Assembly (NCBI GenBank): GCA_023129325.1 | Contig: JAGMCI010000017.1 | Span: forward strand, 13,252-77,251 | DNA from: a candidate division WOR-3 bacterium | GTDB lineage: Bacteria > Hydrothermota > UBA3073 > JACQXS01 > JAGMCI01 | Direction: 5' to 3' | Length of the DNA stretch: 64,000 nucleotides | Shown: piece by piece, positions 5,061 to 39,428 of the stretch | Layout of the letters: the number at the start of each line of letters is the position of its first letter | Position numbering within the stretch: position 1 is the stretch's first letter | The notes under the pieces: generated by a model | Databases searched by the model: none | What the model was told of the DNA's origin: nothing | The model's input: the letters and a program-made list of their open reading frames with translations, nothing else | Program-made: the position numbers and the translations under genes

Positions 5061-5089
5061 CGTTAGCTAACGAATAACGAATAACGAAC
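5061..5089. repeat. CGTTAGCTAACG palindrome plus (CGAATAA)~2.7
   Basis: The same 12-nt palindrome forms the loop of hairpin 1 in leader copy A (8741-8756). Confidence 0.7.
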
Positions 5090-8000
5090 TATCGAATTAA
5101 AAGCATCTTCTTTGTTTGAACAAAGCTTCCTGCTTCTAAACGATAGAAATATAAACCACAAACTACCTTTTCTCCCCTTTTGTTTTTTCCATTCCATACT
5201 ACATTATAATGTCCAGGTTGCTGTCTTTCGTTCACAAGAGTAGTAACAAGTCTTCCAGTAAGGTCATAAATCTTTAAAGAAACTTCACACGGACACGAAC
5301 ACGTATAACGAATCACGGTTCTCTGAGTAAATGGATTTGGATAGCTCTGAGATAAGGCAAAGGTCTTTGGAATATCTGTTGCTTCTTCAATCCCGACTTT
5401 CAGGTTAAAAGAATAGAAAGAGTTAGGTGCATTTTGAGGGTCAGTACTCGTATTTGGAGGGGATGCTTTATCAACTGCAGACAGATAGTAATTTATTTTT
5501 GTATCTAATGGTTGTTCTGGAATTTCTGCAGAATAACCATCGGTGCCAGCAATGGTATCCATAGGGATAGAAATCCATGGGGAATCTACATTTGTTCTAT
5601 ACCAAAGAGTAGCGGATTCAACGCCCGAGTAGTCTGTAATTGTTGAATTTATGAGAAAGGGTCCTACAAAACTTGTATCAGGCCATAGTGTGGTTTCAGA
5701 AAAACTTGGTCCTTGAGTATCTATACCTCCAGTTATAGAGACATCTTCATAATTTCCTGTCCGATACGGATTTCCGCGATACATATTCCAGTAAACACTG
5801 CTATTCCAGGGGTCTTTGTAATCAATTACTTGCATTCCATTTGAGTTACCAACTGCAATTTCAAGGTCTCCATCTCCATCTAAATCCCTGATACAGGGCG
5901 AAGATTCAATTGAACCATTAGTATTTATGGGAAACCCTGTTACGAGTGAGCCATTGGTATTAAGTGCATATAATTTCCCATCATTTGAACCAACTATAAT
6001 CTCAGGCTCCCAATCACAGTCAATATCAGCATATACTGGAGATGATTCTATACTGCCACCAGTGATATAAGGGAATCCAGAGATTAAATTGGCATTAGCA
6101 TCAATTCCATAAATATTATTATCACTGGACCCAAAGAAAATTTCTGGAATACTGTCTCCATCAATATCACAAAATGAGGGTGAACTCCTTATTTTATCAC
6201 CTGCTGTAAAAATGCCTACTGTGTCACCTTTATAATCAAAGATATAAAGTTTTCCATCATCACAACCACACACAATTTCCAATTTTCCGTCTTTGTCTAA
6301 ATCTGCTAATGCAGGAGCACTCTTGATTGTTCCTCCAATTAGTTGAGGCCAACCAGGTAGTATACTGTTATCTTTTGAAATAACATAGAGCTCTTTGTCG
6401 TATGTTCCTACTACTATATCAAGAGTTCCGTTTCCATCAACATCTCCAATTGCGGCTCCAGACCAAATTTTAGTGCCCAAATTACGAGGGAAAGTTCCAA
6501 AGTTTGTAGAGTCATAATTTATCACATAAAGGTTTCCTGAATAATCACCAAATATTATTTCTAATGTATCGTCATTATTTAAATCAGCTAATGCAGGAGT
6601 GGAAAGAATATAGCCTTGAGTTTCATATTTTAAAAGTAAAGAATCATCATTGTTTATAATATATAAGTTCTTATCTTTTGAACCAAATACAATCTCAAGG
6701 TCTCCATCTGCATTGACATCTCCAATTGCTGGGGCGCCCCAAATTTCATTTCCAACCACCATTGGGAACCCAGGTTTTGTAGTTGCTATTGGGTCCCATG
6801 CCCATAAATTATTATTAAAATCACCAGCAATAACTTCAAGTTCACTATCATTATCAATGTCAATAATAATTGGAGGCGACTTTACTTTTGCTCCTAAATT
6901 AATGGGCCAATGCTTTTGGTTAAGGGTTGACTCAATTTCAAATGCAAATGTATCTGAATATGGATGTTGACTTCCCAAGTTGGCAGAAATGACTATATTA
7001 AAATGGATTATACTTGGTGGAAAATCTAAAATCTTGACTTTAAAACCTTTAAAATTCACTGCTACAGACCCACCGTTAATTTTACCAAAAGAGGAACTTG
7101 AATTTATAATTGTGATTTGTGAATCTGGAGAAGATAAAGTACCTACTGCATCATTTGCAGTTCCCCACCCGGATTCATTTTTTATCACTACATGAATATT
7201 TATTATTTCTCCTGGATTTATAAGGGAATCACCATCTCCAATTAATTCTTGTGCGATATATGATTGATAAATTAACTCAGGGTAAAGGCGATGTATAAAT
7301 GTATTGTAAATATTTATTCTACCTGCTCCTAAGAATCCCTTGTAAAAAGGATTAATATCATCAATATTATCACATCCAGTAAGTATTTCTTGTTCAAGCC
7401 AGATATTAGACGAGTCAGGATAAACTGATTTAAGTAGTGCGAAACAACCTGATGCTATAGGAGCCGAACCAGAAGTTCCATCCCAAGAAACTTCTCCTCC
7501 AATCTCAAGATAAGCAGTGCCCCAGATTCCTGATGCAGGAGCGCAGCAATCAACCCAGGAGCCATATTGAGAGCCTCCCCATTTATAGTCCCCAGGAGAT
7601 GTCCCTGCAATTGCCATGCAATTATAATAAGCTGCTGGATAATTAGGTTCTGAAGTTCCATCATTTCCAGCTGAGGCACAAATTACAGCACCATAAACAT
7701 TATAAGCCACATTAATTACAGATTGCCCTGCTGAGCTACCATACTCACCACCCCAACTACAATTTATAATATCAGCTCCATTTTCAGCTGCATATCTAAT
7801 ACCTGAATAGCCATCCGAGACATGCTGGGGGTCATCATCTTCACAACATTTAATAGGCATTATTCTTACTTTCCAAGGAACAGATGCAATATATAAGTTA
7901 TTATTAGTTCTTGCATCTGCTATTCCAGCAGTCCAGGTCCCGTGCATACAATAATCCCAGGGGTCTGTATCTGGATTTCGGGGAGGTCCTTCAGGATTAT

Positions 8001-11595: not shown

Positions 11596-12645
11596 TCACA
11601 TAGAAAAGCCAAGTGATATTCTATGAATTCCTGAAAGGTACTGGTGATTTTCGTAACTGTAATCTACAATAATTTGTCCGACTATTGCTACTGGAGTCAT
11701 TATTCCAAATCCAGCGCTTAAGCCACGATTATTTTTCTTTGTATATCCGAGACGGGCAAAGTATTTACTGTTCAAACAATACTCTATCCCTAAAGCATAA
11801 GTTGCTTCTTGGTCAGAAGGGTGAACTAAATCACTAATTAAAGTAAGTTTATAAAGAGAAGTAGATAATAAATCAACTGCAATTCCAAGCTGAAAATTAA
11901 GAGGTAGCGGATAGGACTCAGATTTATAAGTTGCAGTATGTCCTCCAATAATTGTATCCAGCGTCTCACCTGAATAAGCCATATCTGCTCCAAAATTTTG
12001 AATCATGAATCCAAATCTAAGATTCTTAAGTTTAGTATTATAGATTCCACCTATGTCGAATACTATTCCATTAGCCATTAATTTAGCAATATTTTGATTA
12101 ATTCCCTTCACAGTGAAGCCAGCGTTAAACTTATCTGTTAGCATCCTTGAATACGAAATCCCAACTGCAAAATCATTTGCAGAAAAATAATCTCCTGTTC
12201 CTTCCCAGTTGTCCATAGTTGTTTCTTCAATTTTTCCTGACAAAAGAGCAATAGCACTTATTCCTATAGCCCCATCCTTAATTGGAATAACGATGCCAAT
12301 ATTTTCCTCGCTCATTCCAGCAAACAAATTTACATGTGAGAAACTGGCTGATGTGCGTCTAATCTTTGCTAATCCAGCTGGGTTCCAGTAAATTGCATCT
12401 ACTCCTTCTGCAAAAGCAGAATAAGCTCCTCCCAATGATAAAGCTCTTGCTCCTCCACCAATGGACAGGAAACTTGCCCCACATCCTCCAAGTCTTGCAA
12501 AAGCTAAAGTAGGCAGAAAGAAGTAAGAAGTGAGAAGTAAGAAGTAGGAAGTGAGAAGAAAACAGTTTTTAAAAAGGGTTCGAGGGAAAACAAACCGTTG
12601 TGCTCCTAACATTTCACCTTTCACATTTAACATTTCGTCTTTCAT
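11596..12645 (-). CDS. PorV/PorQ-family outer-membrane beta-barrel protein
   Basis: GGGARALSLGGAYSAFAEGVDAIYWNPAGLA near the N-terminus and alternating beta-strand pattern to the C-terminal ...ISLGFSM, as I recall for the PorV/PorQ (UPF0164-like) family. Strong SD AGGAGG. It sits among T9SS cargo genes. Confidence 0.6.
   Translation of the reverse strand: MKDEMLNVKGEMLGAQRFVFPRTLFKNCFLLTSYFLLLTSYFFLPTLAFARLGGCGASFLSIGGGARALSLGGAYSAFAEGVDAIYWNPAGLAKIRRTSASFSHVNLFAGMSEENIGIVIPIKDGAIGISAIALLSGKIEETTMDNWEGTGDYFSANDFAVGISYSRMLTDKFNAGFTVKGINQNIAKLMANGIVFDIGGIYNTKLKNLRFGFMIQNFGADMAYSGETLDTIIGGHTATYKSESYPLPLNFQLGIAVDLLSTSLYKLTLISDLVHPSDQEATYALGIEYCLNSKYFARLGYTKKNNRGLSAGFGIMTPVAIVGQIIVDYSYENHQYLSGIHRISLGFSM
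12520..12558 (-). repeat. heptamer array (GAAGTRR)x5.5, ACTTC family, encoding the PorV-like signal-peptide core
   Basis: GAAGTAA GAAGTGA GAAGTAA GAAGTAG GAAGTGA GAAG encodes LLTSYFLLLTSYFF. Confidence 0.85.
12608..12645. repeat. AACATTT-type heptamer run over the first codons of the PorV-like gene
   Basis: AACATTTCACCTTTCACATTTAACATTTCGTCTTTCAT. Confidence 0.65.
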
Positions 12646-14420: not shown

Positions 14421-14512
14421 TTTGCATTGTTAATTGCTAATTGTTAAATGTTTTATGTTCCCACTGCTTTTTGCATTTAACATTTCACATAAAACATTCC
14501 ACATCTCACATG
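14421..14512. repeat. intergenic heptamer arrays (GTTAATT/GCTAATT, then ACATNNN) with an internal inverted repeat
   Basis: GTTAATTGCTAATTGTTAA (19 nt) is identical to 22029-22047. AATGTTTTATGT / ACATAAAACATT form an inverted pair. Confidence 0.8.
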
Positions 14513-14513: not shown

Positions 14514-17500
14514 TTAACGGATTATAGCAAATTTTCCTACTTTATCCTTTCCATCAGATGTTACAACTTGGTAAATATATAAACCACTTACTGTTTCAAG
14601 TCCTTCTTTGGTTAATAAGTCCCAGGCATGAGTTCCGCTAAATCCTGTTTCATTTTGAGCGCTTGTTTTAAATACAGGACCTGAAGTTTCATCATGTTCA
14701 ATTGTTTTAATTAAAAGACCCGCCACATTAAATATTCTAATAGTACATTTTGAAGGGAGGTTGGCGAAATATATCTTGCGTTCCATTTCTCCTTCCCAAC
14801 CAGCTTTCACATAGTATGGATTAGGAACCACCCTTACATTGTCTAATTTATAGTCGGTCTTTTCAGTTGTTGCACTAACAGTCTCAATTTTATAAGAATC
14901 CACAACTTTACTTGGGTAAAGTAATTTGACATAATAAATATCATCTTTTTCGGGTGCTATTATATTTGCTGTATCTACCATTACTTCCAAAGCATACATA
15001 TATTTGTTCTTTACAGTATCTCCGGGAGCATAGAAGTAAATTTTATCTCCCTTGTTAAATATACTATCCGCTTTGTTTGGGTGTTCGCCTGGGTTATTAT
15101 CATCAAAGAAAAAGCGAGCAGCCCCCCATTTTTTGTTAATCACTGTAATTGGAGACATACACTCAAAGCTGTCAGGAGTCCATGTTTCAAAGCTACCCGG
15201 TATTTCTACTACTTTTACATCAAATTCATGACGTTTGATATTCGTATCTTTTTGTGTTGTAATAAAGAATTCGTAATTAGACTCTCCTTTTTCCCATTTA
15301 CTATAAGTTGCATCTATTACTTTTTCTGTGTCTAATACTGTCTCAGTATATGTATTCATTATTACAGAAAATCCGTCAGTCACAGGAATATTTTGCTCTC
15401 CATGAAAAGCAGTTACAGAATCAAGCACGATAGTATCTTTTGTCTCATCTGTTAGTCTCCAGTATCCAACTTCTTCTTTGCCCGGTGAAACAGGAAGAAA
15501 ACTTATTTTATACTCATCTCCAGTTAATGCAGATGGGTCAACAATTATAACCTCTACTTTTGAGTCTCCTTCTCCACTAATCCGTGTTACTTTACAGCTT
15601 GGCAATTCAAAATTAACAGGGTCCTTTCTTGGAATTGCCCAATATGTCTTACCAGATAGTCCACTTTCTAAACCTGTAATACCTAATAAAGGACGCTCAC
15701 AGGAATAAGAAGTCACTGAATAATAATAAGTTATCCCATTTGTTAAGCCCTCATCAATGTAATAATGCTTTATTCCTTTTTGTCCACCAATTGATTTTCC
15801 TTTAAAGTTTTGGACTGTAAATACATCGCCTGCAGTTGGAAATCGCTGAATGCCTGGGTTTTCATTATCATAAACTGCATCTGTAATAGATATAAATATT
15901 CCATCAAAATAAATTTCTCTTCCCGAAAGATACCCAGTGTTTGTTGGATAAGCAGAATCAGGATTTACCATTATACAATAACCCCCGCCATCTGCTATTG
16001 CATTTCTATTGTATTCATATATCTCTCCGTCAGCTGAATCATTTTGAAGTATAAATTCTTTTGAACTAAGGAATCGGATACTATATTTATCTTCATTTAA
16101 AACAGAGTCTTTTAAAAATCTAACAAAAGATATATTAGCCTTTGATATTCCTTTTGGATGGTCAACAAGAACAGTGTCTTTTGTAGAGTCAGACTGAATA
16201 TCATAATCAGCAAGTAAGTCCCATTTTCCCGGTAGCCCAGAACTACTTCTATATACCCGATAACCTGCAAATGTTGAACTATCATGCGTCATTTTACAAA
16301 CATACTTCTCAGGTTTGTTATCCCAGGAAAGATAGACTTTCCTATCGCTTGGAACAATAGAAAGTTGAGGAGAGGGAGGTGGAGCAAAACCAAGATAGCC
16401 TGATTTAAATTGCTCTAATGCATATCCTGCCCGAGTTTTAAGTTCAGCGAGAGTATAAGCTACTACCACAGCTATGGTAAAAGATATTTCTGAGTCTGGA
16501 AGTAAAGTAACATAAGGTCCAGAACAAGACAATTGACGCACATCATTAGGCACAGTAGTTCTCTGGAATGTATCTATATTGGCTCTTGCAGTTGATAAAG
16601 CCACATATTTTAAAGAATCTTGCCCATCATCATCTATAAGCATGCCAAATTCTCCTGTCCTTGTCCAGGTTTGGAAACCTGTCATTCCAAGATTCCCTGG
16701 AGTCTTACACATAATACACCCAATAAATCCAGCTGGAGTTTCCCAGCCAGGTTCATAACTGTCTGCATCATAAGAGTAGCCAAGATTAAGTGAGCGGTCA
16801 TAATCAATTAAATCATCTTCTGCTGCTTGCCCTTCTGCAGACACTCCAGACCCAATGTCATTATCCATAAAATAGCCTACATAAATATCTTTTAATGGGA
16901 ATGAGTTCATATTTTTTATTTTCCAATTAAAATAAATATAAGCATTATTATATTCGTAATTCCATGAATAAGTACGTTGTTCAATTCTTATGCCAAGTCC
17001 CCAGACATCGTAAGGACCTGTATCTCTTATCCATATACAGCTTGCATCGTTCTTCGGTATCCAGTCACCTGCACATGCATAACTATCTTCCATAGATATT
17101 ATATCACCATTCGTGGTGTCAACATGGGTAGTGCTATCTTCTCTTCTCACATTTATATCCATATCTGCAAATGGCCAAAGTGCTTGATAATCTTCCTGCT
17201 CTGCTCCATATTGTTTAAAAACAAACTGACCTTCATGGGAATAACCATAACCAATTGGCAGTATCTGATTGCTAAAGGATAATCCTGTTCCTGATATATC
17301 GCCTGCCTCTCCTGCACTCGTAAGTTCTGGTAAATTCATAGCCCCCAGGTCCGAATAATAAGCACCTTTTGATACCCTTGGTTGCCAGGTCGTATCTGGT
17401 CCCTCAATCTTGTCAGGATACTTTGCTCCTACCCATACTCCAGATGCCCAGTTATAAAATTGATTTGTCCCTGCTGGATATTCACCACAAAGGCCATGCA

Positions 17501-17819
17501 TATTGGCACTCAACATATCTAATGATAGCCAGACACAATTCCACGTCCCATCAAAATATCTACATCCTTGTGGGCAGGGGAAATATCCTCCTTGCAGAGT
17601 ATTACTCACAGTCCAGTCTGTTAAATTACCTATACCAGTCCAGTGAACCCACCAGAAATCAGCTGCCTTATCTTGTGGCTTAAATGGTTTTGAGATACCT
17701 CTCTGGGTCTGGACTTCAGGTGTCTGATAATAAGCAAATCCCTGCACCCCAATAAAAACTCCCATTAAAAAAATGATAATTGCTAATTGATAATTGCTAA
17801 TTGATAATTTATTCCTCAT
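14514..17819 (-). CDS. large secreted protein with C-terminal Ig-like (T9SS/FlgD-Ig-like) sorting domain, immediately downstream of the TonB-dependent receptor
   Basis: 1101-aa ORF with SD AGGAGG. Signal MRNKLSISNYQLAIIIFLMGVFIGVQGFA. C-terminus VVPNPYYV...CTIRIFNVAGLLIKTIEHD...GLYIYQVVTSDGKDKVGKFAIIR. Confidence 0.65.
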   Translation of the reverse strand: MRNKLSISNYQLAIIIFLMGVFIGVQGFAYYQTPEVQTQRGISKPFKPQDKAADFWWVHWTGIGNLTDWTVSNTLQGGYFPCPQGCRYFDGTWNCVWLSLDMLSANMHGLCGEYPAGTNQFYNWASGVWVGAKYPDKIEGPDTTWQPRVSKGAYYSDLGAMNLPELTSAGEAGDISGTGLSFSNQILPIGYGYSHEGQFVFKQYGAEQEDYQALWPFADMDINVRREDSTTHVDTTNGDIISMEDSYACAGDWIPKNDASCIWIRDTGPYDVWGLGIRIEQRTYSWNYEYNNAYIYFNWKIKNMNSFPLKDIYVGYFMDNDIGSGVSAEGQAAEDDLIDYDRSLNLGYSYDADSYEPGWETPAGFIGCIMCKTPGNLGMTGFQTWTRTGEFGMLIDDDGQDSLKYVALSTARANIDTFQRTTVPNDVRQLSCSGPYVTLLPDSEISFTIAVVVAYTLAELKTRAGYALEQFKSGYLGFAPPPSPQLSIVPSDRKVYLSWDNKPEKYVCKMTHDSSTFAGYRVYRSSSGLPGKWDLLADYDIQSDSTKDTVLVDHPKGISKANISFVRFLKDSVLNEDKYSIRFLSSKEFILQNDSADGEIYEYNRNAIADGGGYCIMVNPDSAYPTNTGYLSGREIYFDGIFISITDAVYDNENPGIQRFPTAGDVFTVQNFKGKSIGGQKGIKHYYIDEGLTNGITYYYSVTSYSCERPLLGITGLESGLSGKTYWAIPRKDPVNFELPSCKVTRISGEGDSKVEVIIVDPSALTGDEYKISFLPVSPGKEEVGYWRLTDETKDTIVLDSVTAFHGEQNIPVTDGFSVIMNTYTETVLDTEKVIDATYSKWEKGESNYEFFITTQKDTNIKRHEFDVKVVEIPGSFETWTPDSFECMSPITVINKKWGAARFFFDDNNPGEHPNKADSIFNKGDKIYFYAPGDTVKNKYMYALEVMVDTANIIAPEKDDIYYVKLLYPSKVVDSYKIETVSATTEKTDYKLDNVRVVPNPYYVKAGWEGEMERKIYFANLPSKCTIRIFNVAGLLIKTIEHDETSGPVFKTSAQNETGFSGTHAWDLLTKEGLETVSGLYIYQVVTSDGKDKVGKFAIIR
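17775..17809 (-). repeat. heptamer array (GATAATT GCTAATT)x2.5 encoding the signal-peptide start of the 1101-aa protein
   Basis: It encodes KLSISNYQLAII. Confidence 0.85.
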
Positions 17820-17831: not shown

Positions 17832-20800
17832 TTAAAATTTAATTTCTATGCCAAAACGAATTATCCTTGGATTACTGTAATTTGTTGGGTCATTATAATA
17901 TCGTTCCCAATTAGCAAGGTCATCTAAATACATATCCCAACCACTTTTATAATTCTTGCCATGCCTTGCGTTATAATCTTCATACTGACTCTCATAATTT
18001 TCTTTTATCCATTTTGGTGGGTCTCCATTATCATCTGGTTTCCCAGTTCTTGAGTATATATCTACAACATTCTTTGTGTTAAGTAAATTCCTGACATCTG
18101 CAAAAAATCCAATATCAAGACCTCTGAATTTAAATCCTTTATCAATTCTTAAGTCAATATTGCTTATGGCGGGCATTCGTTTTGAGCCAACTTCTTGGGG
18201 CCTGCCCTTTGAATCAGTTGGCGTGTAAGGAGCCCCTGACATAAATACAAATTGAAGGTTAGCATTTAAATTTGATAGAGGCTGTATCTTCAGGGCAAAT
18301 GGTCCCCATTTCTCTGGAATGTTAAAATTTAATCCAGTCTTAATCGTATGAGTTATGTCAAACTCAAGTGGGTATTCCTTTTTTGGTAGAGATATCCCTG
18401 TGTTCATATACCTGTAATAATACTCTCTTGACGAAGAGCCAGTGCCTTTTGCATCCTGGTATGAATATGATATCGTGCCTGATAAAAATCTTCTCGCCCT
18501 TTTTGTAAATATCACATCTATGCCCTTGACTGTTGCAAAATCTTGTAGCTGGTAAATTGTGTATGGAGCAAGTTTGCCCTTGAATATAGTGCGCTTCTCA
18601 CGAGTCGAAAGAAGTGTCTTGACATCTTTAAAATAAGCCGAAATCTCACCAGCCATGTCCGGAGTAAATGCATACCTGAACCCTCCCTCATACATAATCT
18701 CCTTTTGTGGGGGAAGATTCGGATTCCCGATTATCGGAAGTCCATTTGTTATATCAGCATCTAAATTTTGATAAATGTCTGCAAAATTTAATGGTTGGAA
18801 AAAATGACCATAATTTGCATACATTACAGATTTATCAGTCATCGCATAAGAAATGCCAAATCTTGGTGAAAATTGAATCTTTGCCTCTGCTTCTGCCTGA
18901 CCAGCAGATAATGAATCTAAATTAATATAAAAATCAGATTTCGGGTTAAAGTAATCATATCTTAAACCAGCCTTTAAAACCATATCTTCATATTCAATCT
19001 TGTCTGAAAGATATGCTGATGCTGTAAGTGGCTTCTTATCATAATGGTCCATATACGGATTCTTATTTACAAATTGAAGATATGTGAGGTCAAGATCATG
19101 TTTCTCAATATCAGCACCTGCCTTAATCTCATTGTATTTATTTACCTGGGAAATGAGATGAAAACTTGCAGAAAGTCGGGTCGTGTTCCTATCATGCCAC
19201 ATAGGATAGAAATAATAGCAAAATCTCCCAAATTCGTCCCTGTTATATCTTGTCATATACAACCCTCCCGATGGTTCTATTGAATCTTCTGGGAAATCCG
19301 TATTAATATACTTCCTAACATCGTTAATGTATTTGTCAAGACTAAATGTATGATAATATATATATAAAGTCTCCCCATCTTCCACTCCCGTATATACAAG
19401 TTTGTCTCCGCCAGGCACAGAACCTCCCTTTAAATAAGTCCCCGTTTGATAATATCTGTAATTCAAGGCATCAACAATTTCGTTGAAATCTGTCTCGTCT
19501 CCCCATTCCCATTCCCCTGTCGATGAGTTCCATTGTCCTAAATGTCGCACATTCTCATAATACCACATCCATGCCCTGTCTTCCGACCATCCCTCCTCCC
19601 ATGTCCCGTATTCAGGATTATACCAGCCAGAATCCCTTGCCACTGCTACCCAGGATAACCTCGTTCCAATTTCCTTGAAATCATTATAATCCTTACCATC
19701 CTGAGAGCTATACTTATGATAAGTGTTAAATCTCCCGATATTTAATGTGTAAAAAGTCTTCGATGACACAGAATGCGTTAGCTTTAAATTGATTTGTGAG
19801 TTCCCTCGCTGATACAGAGGTAATTCATCTATCCATTTTCCTCTTGAATATGAATGCCAGTACCCATGATACCTTCTATATGCATAATTACTTGATAAAG
19901 TTGCCTTAAATGCATTACTCAATCTCCACGCTAATTTCAATGTCCCTTTCCCTTCTATCCCATCGCTGTGCGGAAGATAAGAATCATACCCCCTGAGACC
20001 CCCAGAGAGGAAAAAACTACTCCTCTTAAGATAGGGAATAGGCCCACCCAGTGTAATGCTTCCATCATTAACCCCAAAATTATATCCCTGGTTAAATAAT
20101 TTACCCTGTTTATACAAATTAGAACTCTTCTTGAAAATATTATCCGTCGTGTATTTTATTCCACCACTATACTTTGTCCCCCCTTCCCTCGTCACCACAT
20201 TTACAACCCCAGACATAGCCCTCCCATACTCAGCATCAAATCCACCCGAAATTATAAGCATCTCCGAAATCGCATTGTTGTCAAGAATAGCCCCAGAAGT
20301 CCCATAAACAGGGTCAGTTGTGTTGATACCATCAACAATGTATACAACCTCATCTGACCTTCCACCTCTAATATGTAATCCACCCGAACTACCACGCCCA
20401 GTCTCAACCGAGCCCGCTTGCAAAGCAACTACATCCTCATAATTCGTTACAGGCATCTTAGATATCTCTTTCCCAGAAGTGCGCTTTGACGATGATGTTA
20501 CATCCCGCTCAATTATAGGCCTCTTGGCAGTCACTATAACCTCTTCTCCTTTTATTACAGTGGGCTCAAGTCTGAAGTTGACAGTGGTAGTCATATCAGT
20601 GGATACTTTTACATTCTTAACTTTCACAGCCTTGTAACCAATCATAGTAGCCTTTACTGTATAAATACCTACAGGAACATTAACAATAAAAAAATCTCCT
20701 AATTTATCCGTTGCTGCTCCCATAGTCGTTCCCTCAATAATGACATTAACAAAAGGAAGTGGCTCTCTTGTCCCTGTATCAATAACTTTCCCCGCAATCT

Positions 20801-20912
20801 TGCCCGTTATCCCTGCAAATAAAGCAGTAGGCAGTAGGCAGTAAGTAGTAAGTAGTAAGAAAATTGAAAATTGAAAATTGAAAATTGAAAATTTATATAA
20901 TTTATTACGCAT
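17832..20912 (-). CDS. TonB-dependent receptor with N-terminal carboxypeptidase-regulatory-like domain (SusC-like architecture)
   Basis: Start moved to ATG 20912 (AGGAGGT upstream); the 21 upstream codons of the track ORF lie in a repeat element. GKVIDTGTREPLPFVNVIIEGT...GIYTVKATMIGY (CarbopepD_reg-like). Plug GGLHIRGGRSDEVVYIVDGINTTDP. C-terminal ...RIIRFGIEIKF. Confidence 0.85.
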   Translation of the reverse strand: MRNKLYKFSIFNFQFSIFLLLTTYCLLPTALFAGITGKIAGKVIDTGTREPLPFVNVIIEGTTMGAATDKLGDFFIVNVPVGIYTVKATMIGYKAVKVKNVKVSTDMTTTVNFRLEPTVIKGEEVIVTAKRPIIERDVTSSSKRTSGKEISKMPVTNYEDVVALQAGSVETGRGSSGGLHIRGGRSDEVVYIVDGINTTDPVYGTSGAILDNNAISEMLIISGGFDAEYGRAMSGVVNVVTREGGTKYSGGIKYTTDNIFKKSSNLYKQGKLFNQGYNFGVNDGSITLGGPIPYLKRSSFFLSGGLRGYDSYLPHSDGIEGKGTLKLAWRLSNAFKATLSSNYAYRRYHGYWHSYSRGKWIDELPLYQRGNSQINLKLTHSVSSKTFYTLNIGRFNTYHKYSSQDGKDYNDFKEIGTRLSWVAVARDSGWYNPEYGTWEEGWSEDRAWMWYYENVRHLGQWNSSTGEWEWGDETDFNEIVDALNYRYYQTGTYLKGGSVPGGDKLVYTGVEDGETLYIYYHTFSLDKYINDVRKYINTDFPEDSIEPSGGLYMTRYNRDEFGRFCYYFYPMWHDRNTTRLSASFHLISQVNKYNEIKAGADIEKHDLDLTYLQFVNKNPYMDHYDKKPLTASAYLSDKIEYEDMVLKAGLRYDYFNPKSDFYINLDSLSAGQAEAEAKIQFSPRFGISYAMTDKSVMYANYGHFFQPLNFADIYQNLDADITNGLPIIGNPNLPPQKEIMYEGGFRYAFTPDMAGEISAYFKDVKTLLSTREKRTIFKGKLAPYTIYQLQDFATVKGIDVIFTKRARRFLSGTISYSYQDAKGTGSSSREYYYRYMNTGISLPKKEYPLEFDITHTIKTGLNFNIPEKWGPFALKIQPLSNLNANLQFVFMSGAPYTPTDSKGRPQEVGSKRMPAISNIDLRIDKGFKFRGLDIGFFADVRNLLNTKNVVDIYSRTGKPDDNGDPPKWIKENYESQYEDYNARHGKNYKSGWDMYLDDLANWERYYNDPTNYSNPRIIRFGIEIKF
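20824..20893 (-). repeat. ten heptamers (5x GYAGTAR, then 5x GAAAATT) encoding the TBDR signal peptide
   Basis: It encodes KFSIFNFQFSIFLLLTTYCLLPTA. Confidence 0.9.
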
Positions 20913-20990
20913 CTTTACCTCCTGCCGTCCGTTCTTGTAAACTTGTTTACTCAGAACGGCGAGCATCCCGCACATAAATTATGTGCGGGA
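20913..20990 (-). repeat. two-hairpin leader element plus SD, copy B, upstream of the TonB-dependent receptor gene
   Basis: Sense: TCCCGCACATAATTTATGTGCGGGA-TGCTCG-CCGTTCT-loop-AGAACGG-ACGGCAGGAGGT-ATG. Confidence 0.85.
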
Positions 20991-21090
20991 TAGCCCATGG
21001 TTTTTGTTTTTTGCCACAAAGGCTTTGCTGTTGACTGCAGCACCGCACATAAACTGTCATGCTGAACTTGTTTCAGCATCTCAACACACT

Positions 21091-21147: not shown

Positions 21148-21168
21148 TTTAAATCATTATCCATCTTT

Positions 21169-21217
21169 TGGTTAATTGGTTAATTGGTTAATTAACCACT
21201 CACCATTTAACCAATCG
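21169..21217. repeat. (GGTTAAT)x3 plus CTCACCATTTAACCA module
   Basis: An inverted copy of this module lies at 25305..25361. Confidence 0.8.
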
Positions 21218-21270
21218 GCATTGGGTGACGAAAGCCGTAACCGAACTACGAAACGGGCTTCCTCACCTAT
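21213..21270. repeat. modular GGTGACGAAAGCCGTAACCGAACTACGAAACGGGCTTCCTCACC element
   Basis: It shares CCGTAACCGAACTACGAAACGGGCTTCCTCACCTAT with 22968..23028. Confidence 0.85.
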
Positions 21271-21283
21271 AACCTTTTAATTT

Positions 21284-21378
21284 CCCACTTCTAACTTCCC
21301 CACTTCTAACTTCCCACTTCTCCACTTCTAACTTCCCACTTCCCACTTCTCCACTTCCTACTTCTCCACTTCCCACTT
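21284..21378. repeat. ~13-unit degenerate heptamer array (CYNACTT, ACTTC family) directly after the tonB stop
   Basis: CCCACTT CTAACTT CCCCACTT CTAACTT CCCACTT CTCCACTT .... Confidence 0.9.
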
Positions 21379-21978
21379 CTATTCTTTAAGTCTAAATCTC
21401 ACTGGCTGATGAACTTTTACGCATACCGGTCTATCCCTTTGTTGGGCAGGTGAAAATTTCCATTTCCTTGCTGCCCTCATAGCCGCTTGGTCACATAATT
21501 CATTTAAAGATTGTAAAACCTTGACATTTATAACTCTTCCACTCGTGTCTATTATAAGTTCTAAGTAAACAGTGCCCTCAATCTCAGCTTTCCTCGCTAA
21601 CTCCGGATATTCTGGCTCTACATAAAGCTTAAGTTGTGGCTTGACTTCAACTGCCCAAAACTCATAAACCTCCGGAGTAGTGAGCTTTGGAGGTCGCTTC
21701 TCAAAACCAAAATCAGTCCTGTCAATAGTAGATGCTTCTATTTCTTTTTCACTCTCCGCAGCAACTGGCATCTTTGGCTTTGGAGGAGGAGGGGGTTCCT
21801 TTAATTGTTGCATCTGGGGTGGAAGTTGTATGGCTCGTACAACTGCATCAACTTTTGGCTCCCATTTCCTGGGTCTCGTTTTGGGAATAAATAAACAAGC
21901 TAAAATGCAGGCAATAATGGCTATGAGGAAAGAAAGTTTATTATGAAATGGTAACCGCTCCTTTAAATCATTATTCAT
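21379..21978 (-). CDS. tonB: energy transducer TonB
   Basis: TM anchor, Pro-rich PPQMQQLKEPPPPPKPKMP and C-terminal YPELARKAEIEGTVYLELIIDTSGRVINVKVLQS...ARKWKFSPA. Start set to ATG 21978 because the 14 upstream codons are encoded by a GTAGGGGC repeat copy. Confidence 0.75.
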   Translation of the reverse strand: MNNDLKERLPFHNKLSFLIAIIACILACLFIPKTRPRKWEPKVDAVVRAIQLPPQMQQLKEPPPPPKPKMPVAAESEKEIEASTIDRTDFGFEKRPPKLTTPEVYEFWAVEVKPQLKLYVEPEYPELARKAEIEGTVYLELIIDTSGRVINVKVLQSLNELCDQAAMRAARKWKFSPAQQRDRPVCVKVHQPVRFRLKE

Positions 21979-22486: not shown

Positions 22487-22541
22487 CCTACACCCTACAC
22501 CCTACACCCTACACCCTACACCCTATTATACCCTACACCCT
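22487..22541. repeat. (CCTACAC)x4 perfect plus degenerate units between the two exbD genes
   Basis: Four perfect units at 22487-22514. Confidence 0.9.
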
Positions 22542-23043: not shown

Positions 23044-23044
23044 C

Positions 23045-26179: not shown

Positions 26180-26183
26180 CTCA

Positions 26184-26213
26184 CTTCCTACTGCTTACTG
26201 CCTACTCCCTACT
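26184..26213. repeat. heptamer array CTTCCTA CTGCTTA CTGCCTA CTCCCTA
   Basis: It is the reverse complement of the GCAGTAG family seen at 20824. Confidence 0.8.
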
Positions 26214-28540: not shown

Positions 28541-28556
28541 AATGTGGGAGGATATT

Positions 28557-28591
28557 AAACATAAAACATTTAACAATTAACATTTAACAAT
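28557..28591. repeat. AACATTT/TAACAAT heptamer array upstream of the Wzc-like gene
   Basis: AAACATA AAACATT TAACAAT TAACATT TAACAAT. Confidence 0.8.
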
Positions 28592-32053: not shown

Positions 32054-34732
32054 ATGACTTATAATTTTAAAGATATTGAGGCAAGACAACAAAAGTATTG
32101 GGACCATATTGGGCTCCCTGCTCCTCCTAAAGTTCCACACAAAAAATATTATATCTTAGAGATGTATCCTTATCCTTCAGGTGACCTTCATATGGGGCAT
32201 CTTAAAAATTATGTGATAGGAGATACATTAACAAGATATAAACTAATGTGTGGATATGATATACTTCATCCTATAGGCTGGGATGCCTTTGGTCTACCTG
32301 CAGAAGAGTGTGCGATTGAGCAAGGCGTGGACCCGGAAAAATGGACTCTCCATAATATTCAAGTTTCTCGCTCAACATTCCGCCTTATGGGTATGTTATA
32401 TGATTGGGATAGAGAGATTACTACTTGCCTTCCAGATTATTATAAATGGACACAATGGTTATTTCTAAAATTATATGAACATGGCTTGGTATATCGTAAA
32501 AAAGCGTTCCAAAATTGGTGCCCTCACTGTCAGACAGTGCTTGCAAATGAACAAGTTGAGGCTGGAAGATGCTGGAGATGCGAAACCCCAGTGAGGAGAA
32601 AAGAACTAAAACAATGGTTCTTTAAAATTACCCAGTATGCTGAAAGATTGTTGACAGATATAAATAAACTCAACGGCTGGCCTGAACGAGTTAAGACACT
32701 GCAAAAAAATTGGATTGGTAAATCTGAAGGCTTGGAAATAGATTTCTCTTTACCTGCCCCGCTCCGACAAGCGAAGCGGGACGGAGATGGCAAGAAGATA
32801 CCAATATTTACTACAAGACCTGATACAATTTATGGAGTAACATTTATAGCAATTGCTCCAGAAAACGAACTTGCAAAGAGCCTTGGTAGAAACTCAAATT
32901 CAAAAAAAGAAGTCTTAAAATACATTGAAAATTCACTAAAACGAACAGAGATTGAAAGAACTTCATCAACCCGAGTTAAAGATGGAGTGAATACAGGCAA
33001 ATATGTGATTAATCCATTATCAGGTAAAAAAGCCGAAATATGGATTGCTGATTATGTCCTACCCTCCTATGGAACTGGCGTTGTAATGGGTGTCCCTGCT
33101 CACGACCAGAGAGATTTTGAATTTGCAAAGAAATACAAGATACCAATTGAAGTTGTTATTCAACCTAAAGGAGTAGGGGCGCATAGCGGCTCGACTGAGG
33201 CTTCCGTTGAGTCAGCCGAAACGCTCGCGACTCGACTGAGGCTTCCGTTGAGTCAGCCGAAACGCTCGTCGAAGCCCGAAGTCAATACGCCCCTACAAAA
33301 TATAAAACAGGCTTATGCCGAACCAGGAGTGATGATAAATTCGGGTCAGTTTAACGGTCTGGATTCAGTCAAAGGAGTAGAAAAAATAATTAAATTTGTG
33401 ACCCAAAACGGAATTGGAAGACGAAAAGTAAATTATAGGTTAAGAGATTGGTTAATATCACGCCAAAGATATTGGGGAGCACCTATTCCAATGATTCATT
33501 GTAAAAAGTGTGGAGTTGTTCCTGTTCCCTTTCATAACCTTCCAGTATACCTTCCAAAACAGGGAATCGATTTCACTCCAAAGGGAAAGTCTCCTCTTTC
33601 TTCAGTCCCTGATTTTATCAACACTAAGTGCCCAAAGTGCGGAAACCCTGCAACCCGAGACCCCGATACTATGGATACCTTTGTGGACTCTGCTTGGTAT
33701 GAGATTAGATACTTAGACCCCAAAAATGAACAAGCTCTTGTCTCAAAAAAGGAAGCCGAAAAATGGCTCCCAGTTGATCAATATATTGGAGGAGTGGAAT
33801 ATGCAACTACCCATCTCCTTTATTTTCGGTTTATCACAAAGTTTCTCTATGATATTGGAGTCCTCCCAGTAGATGAGCCAGTTGAAAATCTCTTTAATCA
33901 GGGGTTGATAAAAGATGAAACCGGGCAAAAGATGTCGAAATCAAAAGGCAATGCTGTCCCAGTAGGCCCATTTCTTAAAGAATGGGGGGCAGATATAGCA
34001 AGACTTACCATTTTATTCCTGGGACCTCCTTCTAAAGATGGAATATGGTCAGTAAAGGGCATACAAGGAGTAAGTAGATTTCTAAATAGAGTATATAAGC
34101 TTGTAAATGAAAATGCTTCTGTAGGGGCGTATGGCGACTCGACTGAGGCTTCCGTTGAGTCAGCCGAAACGCTCGCGACTCGACTGAGGCTTCCGTTGAG
34201 TCAGCCGAAACGCTCGTCGAAGTCCGAAGTCAATATGCCCCTACAAGAGGAGGAAAATTTTAAAAATACACCACTTTATAGGAAGCTTAATCTTACAATA
34301 TCAAAAGTGGAAGAGGACCTCAACTCTTTTGGATATAATACTGCTATAGCATCGCTTATGGAATTTACAAATGAACTTTATAAAACTCAAGAAAGAGGTT
34401 CCATTTTTGGGTACTCTTTAGGAGTGCTAATAAAACTACTCGCCCCATTTGCTCCCCATCTGTCTGAAGAGCTATGGCATGAGCTCGCCCATACGGGTTC
34501 AGTATTTAAATCCTGCTGGCCTGGTTGGAAAGAGGTAGAGGCAAAAAAAGTCACATTAGTGATTGAAATTAATGGAAAGCCAAGAGCTACAGTTGAGATT
34601 CCTTATGATTTAGGAGAGGAAGAAGTGAAAAAAGTTTGCTTGCATAATACTCGTATAGAAGGAAGAATTAAAGGAAAAAATATTAAAAAAATTATATTTG
34701 TTCAAAACAAGCTTATTAATTTTGTAATGTAA
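32054..34732 (+). CDS. leuS: leucine--tRNA ligase
   Basis: HIGH motif PYPSGDLHMGHLKNY, KMSKS motif QKMSKSKGN, and TTRPDTIYGVTF at the editing-domain entry. The ORF is intact despite three in-frame repeat insertions. Confidence 0.95.
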   Translation: MTYNFKDIEARQQKYWDHIGLPAPPKVPHKKYYILEMYPYPSGDLHMGHLKNYVIGDTLTRYKLMCGYDILHPIGWDAFGLPAEECAIEQGVDPEKWTLHNIQVSRSTFRLMGMLYDWDREITTCLPDYYKWTQWLFLKLYEHGLVYRKKAFQNWCPHCQTVLANEQVEAGRCWRCETPVRRKELKQWFFKITQYAERLLTDINKLNGWPERVKTLQKNWIGKSEGLEIDFSLPAPLRQAKRDGDGKKIPIFTTRPDTIYGVTFIAIAPENELAKSLGRNSNSKKEVLKYIENSLKRTEIERTSSTRVKDGVNTGKYVINPLSGKKAEIWIADYVLPSYGTGVVMGVPAHDQRDFEFAKKYKIPIEVVIQPKGVGAHSGSTEASVESAETLATRLRLPLSQPKRSSKPEVNTPLQNIKQAYAEPGVMINSGQFNGLDSVKGVEKIIKFVTQNGIGRRKVNYRLRDWLISRQRYWGAPIPMIHCKKCGVVPVPFHNLPVYLPKQGIDFTPKGKSPLSSVPDFINTKCPKCGNPATRDPDTMDTFVDSAWYEIRYLDPKNEQALVSKKEAEKWLPVDQYIGGVEYATTHLLYFRFITKFLYDIGVLPVDEPVENLFNQGLIKDETGQKMSKSKGNAVPVGPFLKEWGADIARLTILFLGPPSKDGIWSVKGIQGVSRFLNRVYKLVNENASVGAYGDSTEASVESAETLATRLRLPLSQPKRSSKSEVNMPLQEEENFKNTPLYRKLNLTISKVEEDLNSFGYNTAIASLMEFTNELYKTQERGSIFGYSLGVLIKLLAPFAPHLSEELWHELAHTGSVFKSCWPGWKEVEAKKVTLVIEINGKPRATVEIPYDLGEEEVKKVCLHNTRIEGRIKGKNIKKIIFVQNKLINFVM
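32751..32794. repeat. same family, in frame in leuS
   Basis: TACCTGCCCCGCTCCGACAAGCGAAGCGGGACGGAG encodes LPAPLRQAKRDGDGK. Confidence 0.85.
33173..33296 (+). repeat. 124-nt GTAGGGGCG...CGCCCCTAC element in frame in leuS (copy 1)
   Basis: Inverted termini GTAGGGGCGCAT / AATACGCCCCTAC. Internal 41-nt unit (CTCGACTGAGGCTTCCGTTGAGTCAGCCGAAACGCTCG plus 3 nt) present twice. Confidence 0.9.
34121..34244 (+). repeat. 124-nt GTAGGGGCG...GCCCCTAC element in frame in leuS (copy 2)
   Basis: By my alignment it differs from copy 1 at 5 of 124 positions. Same orientation and same reading frame. Confidence 0.9.
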
Positions 34733-37863: not shown

Positions 37864-37996
37864 ATCAAAAATTAAAATGCAAAAATCAAAATTATTGTAG
37901 GCACGATTTCAAATCGCACAGGCAATTTATGATTAAGATTAAAAAAGTTTTGCTTTTTAATATGTGATTTTGATATTTGATTTTTGATATTTAATA
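37864..37996. repeat. inverted ATCAAAA / TTTTGAT heptamer arrays flanking the TGTAGGCAC hairpin
   Basis: Left array at 37864-37891 and right array at 37948-37996. Confidence 0.75.
37896..37924. repeat. TGTAGGCAC-family hairpin (short)
   Basis: TGTAGGCACGATTTCAAATCGCACAGGCA, flanked by inverted ATCAAAA / TTTTGAT arrays. Confidence 0.8.
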
Positions 37997-38006
37997 TTCT
38001 TTAATT

Positions 38007-39428
38007 ATGCTCTCAACTATAAAGGCTCAACTTAAGCCCTTTATGCCATTGTTACTTAAAGCAAAGGAACCATGGCTTGTTGGGGGTGCAATTAGAGATG
38101 CTATCATTACTTCCCACTTCTCACTTCCTACTTCCCACTTCAAAGATTTTGATTTTGCCATCAAAGGTTCAGGAATAGAATTTGCACGCTGGTTTGCACA
38201 TAAGATTTGTGCCGGAGACACATCCGCCTCCGGCATAAAGGGAAGCTTTGTTTTACTTGATTCTGAAAATGACGAAGCAAGAGTCGTGGTAAAAATCAGA
38301 AATCAGAAGTCAGAAGTCAGAAATCTTACTTTTGATTTTAATGGAATGAAGTCTATTGAGGAAGACCTTTCCCGGCGCGATTTTAGACTAAATGCCATGG
38401 CAGCAAAATTACCTGAATTTAAAATACTTGACCCATTTAAGGGCATAGAGGATATAAAGAAAAAGAGACTCAGAATGGTTTCTGAAAAATGCTTTAAAGA
38501 AGATGCACTGAGAATACTTAGAGGATTTAGATTAGAAGCAACACTTGGCTTTAAAATAACTCCTAAAACTCTTGAAGTCATGAGACTTCATAAAAATTTA
38601 CTCTTCAAAATTGCACCTGAAAGAATAAGAGAAGAGCTTTTCCTTCTTCTTAAAGCTAAGAATTGTTACAGAACCTTACGACATATGGCCAGACTTGAAA
38701 TACTTGATGTCATAATTCCGGAGACCACTCCTATGAGAGAGGTACCATCCCGATTTATCGGGAGTGGCAACTTGCTTGACCATTCAATGTTAACTGTTAA
38801 AAAGGTTGAGGACTTAGAAGCATCTGAGGACTTTAGCCCTTGGTTTAGTGAATATCTTAGAAAAAAATTACCTGTCCTAAAGTTAGCTGCTTTATTGCAC
38901 GATATTGGTAAACCATATTGCTATACTAAGAATGAATCAGGAAAAGTGCACTTTTATGGTCATGAAAAAAAGGGGATAGAACTTCTCGTAGGAATTCGTG
39001 ACCGTCTTAGATTGAGCCATAAGGAATTTAAGACCCTTCAGTTGCTTATTCATTATCATATGCGACCTCATCTTTTAGCCAGAGAGCGTTATCCAACTGA
39101 CAAAGCAATATGGAAATTTATAAGAGATGGCGGTGAAGAAGCGCAAGGCATTCTTTTGCTCGCTTATGCGGATGCCTTGGCATCTGGAAGAAGAGGAAGG
39201 AAAGGGCTTCTTAAATTACTTGATAGAGGGATAAAGATGCAAGCAGAATTCAATCGTCCTAAATTCAAACCTTTATTAACAGGTAATGATTTGATCTCTC
39301 TTGGACTCAAGCCAGGTCCCAAGTTTAAGGAAATTCTACAGATAGTAGGAGAGATGCAAGTGAGTGGCGAACTCCATACTACCAATCAAGCCCTACAATT
39401 TGTTAAGAAAAACTTCCTCGCCTCGTAA
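38007..39428 (+). CDS. cca: CCA-adding enzyme / poly(A) polymerase family nucleotidyltransferase with HD domain
   Basis: LVGGAIRD...DFDFAI (GGxxRD / DxD head domain), RRDFRLNAMA, and HD region LHDIGKP...YGHEKKG. Confidence 0.8.
   Translation: MLSTIKAQLKPFMPLLLKAKEPWLVGGAIRDAIITSHFSLPTSHFKDFDFAIKGSGIEFARWFAHKICAGDTSASGIKGSFVLLDSENDEARVVVKIRNQKSEVRNLTFDFNGMKSIEEDLSRRDFRLNAMAAKLPEFKILDPFKGIEDIKKKRLRMVSEKCFKEDALRILRGFRLEATLGFKITPKTLEVMRLHKNLLFKIAPERIREELFLLLKAKNCYRTLRHMARLEILDVIIPETTPMREVPSRFIGSGNLLDHSMLTVKKVEDLEASEDFSPWFSEYLRKKLPVLKLAALLHDIGKPYCYTKNESGKVHFYGHEKKGIELLVGIRDRLRLSHKEFKTLQLLIHYHMRPHLLARERYPTDKAIWKFIRDGGEEAQGILLLAYADALASGRRGRKGLLKLLDRGIKMQAEFNRPKFKPLLTGNDLISLGLKPGPKFKEILQIVGEMQVSGELHTTNQALQFVKKNFLAS
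38110..38141 (+). repeat. ACTTC-family heptamers in frame in cca between GGxxRD and DxD
   Basis: TTCCCACTTCTCACTTCCTACTTCCCACTTC encodes TSHFSLPTSHF. Confidence 0.85.
38293..38324 (+). repeat. (AATCAGA/AGTCAGA)x4 heptamers in frame in cca
   Basis: It encodes IRNQKSEVRN. Confidence 0.85.

Follow-up and report, generated by a model that had tools for sequence, protein, structure and literature searches.

Seven-nucleotide tandem repeats in signal-peptide, enzyme-loop and spacer DNA of a candidate division WOR-3 bacterium

Heptamer arrays in the receptor leader and across the window

We analyzed tandem repeats with a period of 7 nt in DNA from a candidate division WOR-3 bacterium. The window, by which we mean the whole stretch of DNA that was analyzed, is 64 kb of contig JAGMCI010000017.1. 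Two of these heptamer arrays lie side by side at the 5' end of a gene for a TonB-dependent receptor, where they encode the hydrophobic part of its predicted signal peptide. Other arrays are found in neighbouring genes for exported proteins, in genes for enzymes and in intergenic spacers (Table 1).

The real start of the receptor gene is the ATG at 20912, which is 5 nt downstream of GGAGG, and not the ATG at 20975 that begins the longest open reading frame (ORF). On the sense strand, ATG CGT AAT AAA TTA TAT AAA is followed by five AATTTTC units and five YTACTRC units, and the translation is MRNKLYKFSIFNFQFSIFLLLTTYCLLPTALFA|GITGKIAGKVID. Read on the forward strand (+), positions 20824..20859 are GCAGTAG GCAGTAG GCAGTAA GTAGTAA GTAGTAA (90% matches in Tandem Repeats Finder, TRF), and positions 20859..20893 are GAAAATT x5.0, free of mismatches (100% matches, score 70). 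By inspection and alignment with orthologues, the leader consists of MRNKLYK, a hydrophobic region (h-region) and ALFA|GITGKI. It has the properties of a Sec-type signal peptide, with a positively charged amino-terminal n-region, a hydrophobic h-region and small residues at -1 and -3. Cleavage is predicted after ALFA, and the conserved mature start GITGKIAGKVID comes next. Because a mature start of the form [AGQ][IT]TGKIxGxVxD is common to about 50 receptor orthologues, the array-encoded residues are predicted to fall wholly within the cleaved leader.

An earlier annotation by a model that saw only this DNA (the sequence-only reading) had described ten consecutive heptamers at 20824-20893 encoding the hydrophobic part of the receptor signal peptide, and both the units and the peptide were confirmed by TRF and translation. 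It had also pointed out that a change in the number of these non-triplet units would shift the reading frame. This was borne out by simulation: gain or loss of one or two units in either array led to a stop codon within 30-47 codons, and no start codon that would rescue the frame after ±1 or ±2 receptor units was found.

Heptamer arrays were not confined to the receptor gene. A strict scan of the window found 10 arrays at period 7 and 3 at period 8. Periods 4, 5, 6 and 9-12 yielded no arrays, and shuffled sequence yielded no arrays whatever the period. With TRF there were 21 period-7 arrays at a score of at least 40 and about 29 at a score of at least 30. Heptamers were over-represented relative both to other periods and to chance, as is characteristic of long simple sequence repeats (LSSRs). 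They were also dispersed and mainly non-coding: 11 of the 21 arrays were intergenic, although intergenic DNA makes up only ~10% of the window, and period-7 periodic bases accounted for 4.8% of intergenic DNA compared to 0.24% of ordinary coding sequence (CDS). In the short spacers inside operons, an array often takes up most of the available length. The 64 kb contain more than 20 different heptamers, in both orientations relative to transcription.

Among coding regions, it was the DNA encoding signal peptides that carried arrays in excess (P = 6e-7). The density of arrays per kb was 4.6 in signal-peptide DNA (1,083 nt from 15 genes), 1.45 in intergenic DNA and 0.09 in other CDS. With respect to array density, signal-peptide DNA behaves like non-coding DNA.

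Array sites and unit numbers in related lineages, and other features of the window

For comparison we used the orthologous operons of 8 genomes, those on 4 metagenome contigs, and additional loci obtained by exact-protein look-ups. The abundance of arrays depended on lineage. There were 3.3 arrays per 10 kb in the window and 2.5-6 in L003, L015, L020 and L021, compared to 0-0.44 in L018, L004, L006 and L012. In the array-poor lineages, each of the four exported proteins of the operon had an ordinary signal peptide of about 18-26 aa. Among these is P0005 from L018, the receptor's closest relative (67% identity), with the signal peptide MLRKILFFILSFGIFCNIFG. In array-rich lineages the signal peptides were longer and had a 7-aa periodicity, and the 33-aa signal peptide of the receptor in the window compares to 18-26 aa in orthologues. 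Four consecutive exported genes carry signal-peptide arrays in both L003 and L015. Mature N-termini were conserved and were always downstream of the arrays.

Different units were found at the same site. In the receptor signal peptide, the AATTTTC and YTACTRC units of the window are replaced by perfect GGTCTTT x5.7 in L011, L013 and L020, and by CTCTACT in L003. L003, L015 and L011 have units related to the YTACTRC array (CTACTGC/CTGCTTA) too, in signal peptides encoded by other genes. A similar pattern was seen in the CCA-adding enzyme: P0127, from another lineage, has AAAATGC x5 in the same loop that has an AAATCAG array in the window, and another loop has GAYTCAC units, ~12 in P0128 and ~6 in P0131. 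Judging from these sequences, the arrays appear to have arisen repeatedly and independently at the same permissive positions, in signal peptides and in loops of the CCA-adding enzyme. The sequence-only reading had raised the possibility that repeat-derived leaders are confined to this lineage, but L003, L011, L013, L015 and L020 have them as well. Nor was there any sign of one part of what it had named as refuting evidence, the same signal peptides in orthologues without repeats; the repeat-free orthologues have shorter and different signal peptides.

Comparisons between close relatives showed changes in unit number. Over 7.8 kb, L008 matches L014 at 98.1% identity, and the sole indel between them, in an intergenic array, is a single CAAAATG unit. 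Between L003 and L015 (~96% identical), 6 of the 8 indels of at least 5 nt were multiples of 7 (7, 7, 14, 14, 21 and 21 nt); in array-poor control pairs the fraction was 4 of 30, about the chance expectation of 1/7. Differences in unit number between related genomes are what slippage of LSSRs would produce, and the arrays of the window belong to the heptanucleotide class of LSSRs by the features that we regard as characteristic of it: over-represented, dispersed and variable arrays of period 7.

The size of the changes depended on where they occurred. Intergenic length changes were 7 or 14 nt (one or two units), whereas coding changes were 21 or 42 nt (three or six units). The receptor signal peptide of L003 has two 21-nt blocks, CAAAATG-CAGATTG-CAGATTA and ATCAACT-CTCTACT-CTTTACT, that are absent from L015, such that the two signal peptides are 33 and 19 aa. 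The GAYTCAC arrays of P0128 and P0131 differ by 42 nt. All of the nine or more signal-peptide arrays, counted gene by lineage, were in frame behind a Shine-Dalgarno sequence and an ATG.

At closer range there was no change in number. L011, L013 and L020 (99.5-99.8% identical) have identical copy number, 5.7 units, and L029 and L030 (99.9% identical) have equal GAYTCAC counts. In the orthologues of the 1101-aa exported protein in L003, L015, L004 and L011 (at least 22% DNA divergence), the h-region array has decayed and its length has been kept. The leader arrays were short, with 5.0 perfect and 5 degenerate units in the receptor and at most 6 units in relatives. The proteins encoded in the window itself formed singleton clusters for all four queried, the nearest receptor homologue was 67% identical, and the databases contained no strain variants of these proteins.

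L020 differs from L011 by 10 substitutions over 4,141 nt. The signal peptide of P0006 in L020, SVIGLWSLDFGLWS, differs from that in L011, SVFGLWSLVFGLWS, at two residues, both in the 40-nt GGTCTTT array, and the unit number is the same. These point changes suggest that the array is under relaxed constraint or has a raised substitution rate.

Two apparent length differences proved not to be array polymorphisms. The ExbD proteins of L015 and L016 (101 and 136 aa) differ because of a T8/T9 homopolymer indel, and the 1086- and 1094-aa proteins of L018 and L019 differ purely in start calling. The T8/T9 indel in exbD (L015:7481 and L016:4163) is the sole difference between two assemblies of the same lineage, and may be an error of sequencing or assembly or a homopolymer frameshift polymorphism.

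Arrays of the same types were found inside enzymes. Those in the genes for the CCA-adding enzyme, IspH and a ThiL-like protein resemble those in signal peptides and intergenic spacers, so that an association with surface genes, as in contingency loci, was not seen. The arrays in essential single-copy enzymes are of the same size as the others, which argues that they are not very unstable. The ACTTCCY array in the CCA-adding enzyme adds a net 7 aa (21 nt, three units) relative to orthologues. It stands in place of a single ancestral ACTTCCT that encodes the Leu-Pro of a conserved "GLP" (GGACTTCCTGTT in three orthologues), and was thus seeded locally. The loop between GGAIRD and DFD in which it lies is a hotspot for insertions beside the catalytic carboxylates; the orthologues P0132 and P0135 have Lys/Asn/Gln-rich low-complexity insertions of ~20-35 aa there (columns 70-105 of alignment A2).

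Arrays also encode leader sequence in two neighbouring genes for exported proteins. In the PorV/FadL-like protein, 12518..12558 translates to LLTSYFLLLTSYFF, in agreement with the heptamer-coded peptide that the sequence-only reading had assigned to this barrel. That reading had extended the same pattern to the 1101-aa exported protein. Its peptide was correct, but the array spans only the n-region and the early h-region, and the main hydrophobic core, IIIFLMGVFIGV, lies outside the array and is not repeat-encoded. Between the receptor gene and its neighbour, the TGATAAT/TGCTAAT unit at 17774-17809 is similar to the Fur-box hexamer GATAAT; AT-richness (37% GC) makes a chance match likely.

Table 1. 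The receptor gene and heptamer arrays of the window. Units are followed by copy number; an empty strand cell indicates that none was assigned.
Feature	Position	Strand	Description
TonB-dependent receptor gene	17832..20912	-	1026 aa; CarboxypepD_reg, Plug and beta-barrel domains
Predicted signal-peptide coding region, receptor	20814..20912	-	33 codons
Perfect array, receptor signal peptide	20859..20893	-	AATTTTC x5 sense (GAAAATT on +); encodes FSIFNFQFSIF
Degenerate array, receptor signal peptide	20824..20859	-	YTACTRC x5 sense; encodes LLLTTYCLLPTA, the h-core
Array, PorV/FadL-like signal peptide	12507..12558	-	ACTTCTY x5-7 sense; encodes CFLLTSYFLLLTSYFF, the h-core; CDS 11596..12645
Array, PorV-like protein	12609..12636	-	GAAATGT x4 sense; encodes N-terminal extension MKDEMLNVKGEML
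Array, 1101-aa exported protein	17774..17809	-	AATTATC/AATTAGC x5 (14-mer x2.6); encodes LSISNYQLAII; CDS 14514..17819
Array, CCA-adding enzyme	38109..38141	+	ACTTCCY x4.7; in frame, between GGAIRD and DFD
Array, CCA-adding enzyme	38293..38325	+	AAATCAG x4.7; in frame, second variable loop
Array, IspH/LytB	42881..42912	-	ACTTTCC on +; in frame, surface loop; encodes GSGKWKVESGKF
Perfect array, AIR-synthase-related (ThiL-like) protein	44941..44964	-	ACTTCCC x3.4 on +; in frame near C-terminus
Longest array of the window	21282..21380		~13.6 units, ACTTCYC-type; 466-nt spacer, tonB/receptor gene
Perfect intergenic array	22487..22525		CCTACAC x5.6; most of 65-nt spacer, two exbD genes
Intergenic array	26183..26213		ACTGCCT-type x4.4; fills 34-nt spacer
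Two intergenic arrays	14426..14511		ATTGTTA x3.9 and CATTTCA x5.4; 105-nt spacer, 1101-aa gene/NHL lipoprotein gene
Intergenic array	5068..5097		TAACGAA x4.1; fills 35-nt spacer
Intergenic array	28554..28589		ATTTAAC x5.1; ends 10 nt upstream of start codon
Intergenic array	37956..37998		TTTGATA x6.3; ends 9 nt upstream of CCA-enzyme start codon

Several other repeated elements were noted in the window. Two of the period-8 arrays, at 21168-21193 and 25331-25361, consist of TTGGTTAA x3.2 and its reverse complement AATTAACC x3.9 and lie in intergenic or start regions; a third, GCAGGCGG x4.2 at 34922-34955, is in frame in a sugar-transferase gene and encodes PAGGQAGRRAGG. A 41-nt unit, GCGACTCGACTGAGGCTTCCGTTGAGTCAGCCGAAACGCTC, is tandemly duplicated at 33186-33268 and again at 34134-34216, ~950 nt apart (97-100% matches in TRF), both times inside an 892-aa ORF (32054..34732). 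There is also a recurring leader element, at 20913-20995 (-), 53011-53101 (+), 8680-8766 (-) and 26871-26902 (-), directly upstream of the receptor gene and of MotA/ExbB-like and S8-peptidase genes. Its first part is a perfect hairpin, CCCGCACATAATTTATGTGCGGG or a variant, and GATGCTCGCCGTTCTGAGT...AAGAACGGACGGCAGGAGG comes next; a CCGTTCT sequence in the element can pair with AGAACGG beside the Shine-Dalgarno sequence, and the element had no match in Rfam. This element could be a conserved 5' regulatory leader or resemble repetitive extragenic palindromic (REP) elements. A dispersed element of ~60 nt, GGTTATAGGTGAGGAAGCCCGTTTCGTAGTTCGGTTACGGCTTTCGTCACCC...CCGATTG, is present in both orientations in three intergenic regions, at ~21200-21270 (-), 22948-23044 (-) and ~31930-32010 (+), and looks like a miniature inverted-repeat transposable element or a REP.

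Slippage, selection and other explanations

We think it probable, at about 0.7, that the signal-peptide arrays represent in coding regions an excess of heptanucleotide LSSRs that is genome-wide and lineage-specific, generated by slippage and filtered by selection, and that the cleaved signal peptide is a permissive site rather than a switch. Slippage-type events in this WOR-3 lineage multiply a 7-mer in place, and units are afterwards gained or lost whole. Arrays build up where constraint is low, in short spacers, cleaved signal peptides and variable surface loops of enzymes. Within genes, selection passes only net changes that keep the frame, in multiples of three units (21 nt, 7 aa), leaving a segment with a periodicity of seven residues. 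We regard these three steps as shown. Since 7 and 3 have no common factor, translation of an array runs through all three frames and yields a repeat of seven residues, and this 7-aa peptide is the same in every frame. The units of the signal-peptide arrays were free of stops and rich in pyrimidines on the sense strand, encoding F, L, S, I, T, Y, C and P. Signal peptides would retain such units, whose three frames give uncharged, hydrophobic residues, and we infer that this composition reflects selection for compatibility with the h-region. The outcome would be longer, repeat-built signal peptides that are cut off on export and leave the mature protein unaffected, with the arrays as tolerated by-products. 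A gain or loss of a single unit would inactivate the gene; with 5-6 units, such events appear to be rare and to be purged by selection. As an aside, the sequence-only reading had proposed that T-rich repeats are simply a cheap source of hydrophobic leader sequence. This came near to the data but missed the likely cause, a period-7 bias that is genome-wide and lineage-specific.

Several observations weigh against tolerated slippage as the whole explanation. The array density in signal-peptide DNA is, if anything, higher than in intergenic DNA (the numbers are small), and this could mean positive selection. Many intergenic arrays lie within ~20 nt of a start codon, as do the TAACTGA repeats for which a regulatory role has been proposed. 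Three families of units, ACTKCYY, AAAATGC/CAGATTG and GAYTCAC, turn up repeatedly, both at loci that are unrelated and in WOR-3 lineages that are distant from each other. Such recurrence is not expected from purely random local slippage, and hints at a sequence preference, ectopic conversion or function. In addition, signal peptides and cleavage sites were assigned by inspection and orthologue alignment, and unit numbers were compared in assembled sequences.

The AAAATGC/CAGATTG-type arrays were found at L003:14128-14156, L015:11984-12012, L014:8538-8578, L009:5859-5897 and 6031-6069, and in L027 (the P0127 loop). Their sites include start codons, intergenic DNA and a loop of the CCA-adding enzyme, in lineages whose receptors are only ~48% identical. 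Each of these units contains an ATG, which puts start codons in all three frames. In L009 a segment of ~170 nt that includes such arrays is duplicated.

It seems unlikely that the arrays are contingency loci. In that case, slipped-strand mispairing would shift the frame just past the start codon and stochastically switch outer-membrane proteins, the receptor and its neighbours, ON and OFF, as in Neisseria opa and E. coli neuO. One possible gain would be escape from phages using this receptor. The design at the 5' end is what such a switch needs, a non-triplet repeat just past the start, with the stops and the lack of a rescue start seen in simulation. One of the two arrays, GAAAATT x5, is perfect, unit slippage does happen in this phylum, the genes encode surface-exposed proteins, and several consecutive exported genes of the operon carry arrays here and in L003 and L015. 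However, the tracts are not long and near-perfect; there are only 5-6 units, compared to 3-53 and commonly ~20 in neuO. There were 0 out-of-frame alleles in the nine or more gene-by-lineage cases, and at the OFF frequency of neuO (65.6%) nine such cases would have a probability of ~7e-5. No unit-number polymorphism or OFF allele was seen between close strains, the copy number being the same in L011, L013 and L020 (99.5-99.8%) and in L029 and L030 (99.9%), and at 4-11% divergence the differences were 3n units only. One leader array is shared over at least 22% divergence, decayed and unchanged in length. Identical array types are present in intergenic DNA and in essential enzymes, where switching would be lethal. 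The sequence-only reading had recognized here the architecture of phase-variable genes; its frameshift design stands, whereas the tract length, OFF alleles, close-strain polymorphism and confinement to surface genes that go with phase variation were not found. A switch of low rate is possible but unsupported by anything beyond the frameshift architecture.

A functional role as cis-elements is about equally doubtful. The arrays would be bound near start codons by a protein that recognizes 7-nt units, would tune translation or mRNA stability, and in signal peptides would simply spill into permissive coding sequence. Many arrays do lie near start codons, 0-20 nt upstream or 10-150 nt downstream; the unit families that recur at different loci and in different lineages are limited in number; and arrays that contain ATG (AAAATGC, GAAATGT) are located at start codons in several lineages. 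A role of this kind has been proposed for TAACTGA in a paper that also points out the binding of heptamer repeats by CspB (PMC4679880). On the other hand, more than 20 heptamers in 64 kb are a poor fit to one sequence-specific binder, and there are unrelated units at orthologous sites. The arrays have both orientations relative to transcription, and some lie deep in genes (the CCA enzyme, IspH and the ThiL-like protein). Given how short the operon spacers are, an intergenic array cannot be anywhere but near a start, and proximity to start codons is therefore unavoidable. We also rejected a role for RNA structure in the start-codon arrays: the leader RNAs folded like shuffled sequences (minimum free energy z-scores of -1.5 to +1.25), no differently from the array-free orthologous leaders. 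An Rfam scan of the window gave no family for the arrays, with only a tRNA passing the gathering thresholds.

There is also a small chance that heptamer slippage supplies novelty in surface proteins together with low-rate switching, giving graded, reversible ON/OFF control of outer-membrane proteins exposed to phages. Signal peptides may then be assembled from two arrays, an AAAATGC array (MQNAKCK), which contains ATG and Lys codons, for the n-region and a pyrimidine-rich CTACTGC array (LLPTAYC) for the h-region. ATG-bearing arrays may buffer some ±1-unit slips while other slips silence the gene; in a simulation with the 1130-aa gene of L003, changes of -1 or +2 units were rescued by the third ATG of an ATG-containing array. 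The recurring unit families may reflect a dedicated mechanism rather than chance. If true, there would be an ON/OFF surface system in a free-living, uncultured phylum. We considered a frame-robust leader, in which alternative starts would rescue ±1-unit slips, and rejected it for all three genes of the window: there was either no such start, or only a TTG lacking a Shine-Dalgarno sequence or a truncated signal peptide. Only the 1130-aa gene of L003 would partly allow it.

Less likely again is adaptive lengthening, in which longer or more hydrophobic signal peptides were selected, for their targeting route or for slower cleavage, and heptamer slippage was merely the means. The density of arrays in signal peptides, at least equal to that in intergenic DNA, and the persistence of long leaders across divergent lineages would fit. 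But close relatives have signal peptides of 19-20 aa on the same mature proteins, the same signal peptide in L003 and L015 differs by 14 aa at ~96% DNA identity, and enzyme loops gain segments in the same way with no apparent benefit there. Finally, that the repeats are chimeric or collapsed products of assembly is very improbable: k-mer contigs do break in arrays, and the Logan contig L024 stops after 4 GAAAATT units, inside the perfect array, as a k=31 graph would be expected to do, but the same sequence is present in three assemblies (contig DAOWLA010000007.1 of the NCBI metagenome-assembled genome, MAG, GCA_030643605.1, an ENA scaffold and a Logan contig, probably from one sample), reading frames are intact through every coding array, and analogous arrays occur in independent samples, studies and lineages.

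If slippage tolerated at permissive sites is the correct explanation, then a lineage-specific excess of 7-nt slippage shapes protein, creating 7-residue periodic segments in signal peptides and enzyme loops in which the surviving steps are 21 nt. It would clearly exemplify how a mutational bias can write protein sequence at the sites of lowest constraint. Repeats could serve to build leaders or to rebuild them, and the leaders could later decay until they look like ordinary signal peptides. The signal peptides of 19 and 33 aa on the same mature protein, at ~96% DNA identity, amount to a natural experiment on the tolerance of Sec signal peptides. There are practical consequences as well: a non-triplet repeat after the start codon is insufficient to call a gene phase variable, and heptamer arrays break short-read assemblies and can mislead the calling of start codons in MAGs.

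Comparison with known heptamer repeats and switches

In many prokaryotes, no class of LSSRs is more abundant than the heptanucleotides; their excess is established for several phyla and has been ascribed to polymerase slippage (Mrazek 2007, as cited in PMC4679880 and PMC4692102). Known examples include GGGAATC/GGGGAYT repeats in Xanthomonas and Nostoc (PMC4692102) and TAACTGA repeats in Beggiatoaceae, Cyanobacteria and Bacteroidetes (PMC4679880). The arrays described here resemble prokaryotic heptanucleotide LSSRs, including the short tandemly repeated repetitive (STRR) sequences of cyanobacteria, in their excess at period 7, their mostly intergenic location, often just upstream of starts, and their lineage-specific abundance. 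In both, length varies between relatives, and slippage is the presumed mechanism. They differ in having many AT-rich and pyrimidine-rich units rather than one dominant heptamer. They also differ in that a sizeable share is in frame, in signal peptides and enzyme loops, and changes in steps of three units (7 aa). Heptamers have been treated as essentially non-coding, with coding repeats usually being multiples of three (PMC4679880, PMC4692102). Literature searches on heptamer repeats in signal peptides or in WOR-3 found nothing relevant, and we did not find descriptions of a heptamer excess in WOR-3, of a large in-frame fraction, or of signal peptides and enzyme loops built in 7-aa steps.

The TAACTGA-type repeats, for which a regulatory role has been considered (MacGregor 2015), are distinguished by one favoured heptamer in forward orientation a few nt upstream of starts; in the window there were more than 20 units, in both orientations. 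The binders proposed for TAACTGA in Beggiatoaceae are RNA-binding proteins with cold-shock domains or S1-like RNA binders (PMC4679880).

Two known switches are closer in design. In E. coli K1 neuO, AAGACTC heptamers in the 5' coding region number 3-53, most commonly ~20; the gene was out of frame (OFF) in 65.6% of 64 genomes, and subpopulations with ±1 unit arise in culture (PMC13001214). The likeness lies in the 5' coding heptamer array, in which full-length protein is made only when the number of units is divisible by three, and three units add 7 aa. However, neuO varies between nearly all strains, whereas the arrays here have at most 6 units, always keep the frame and show no change between strains of 99.5-99.9% identity. 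In neuO the repeat also stays in the N-terminus of the enzyme, where a longer repeat makes it more active; the arrays here lie in a signal peptide that is predicted to be cleaved. Neisseria opa is similar in another respect: there too, the hydrophobic signal-peptide core of an outer-membrane protein is encoded by a repeat that is non-triplet and rich in pyrimidines, and the frame shifts when the number of units changes (PMC3745409). The CTCTT leader repeat of opa switches at ~1e-3 per cell per generation (PMC3745409). The opa genes of a genome are mostly OFF and form a dedicated system of a host-adapted pathogen, whereas the heptamer arrays described here are short, stable and spread over the whole genome of a free-living environmental lineage.

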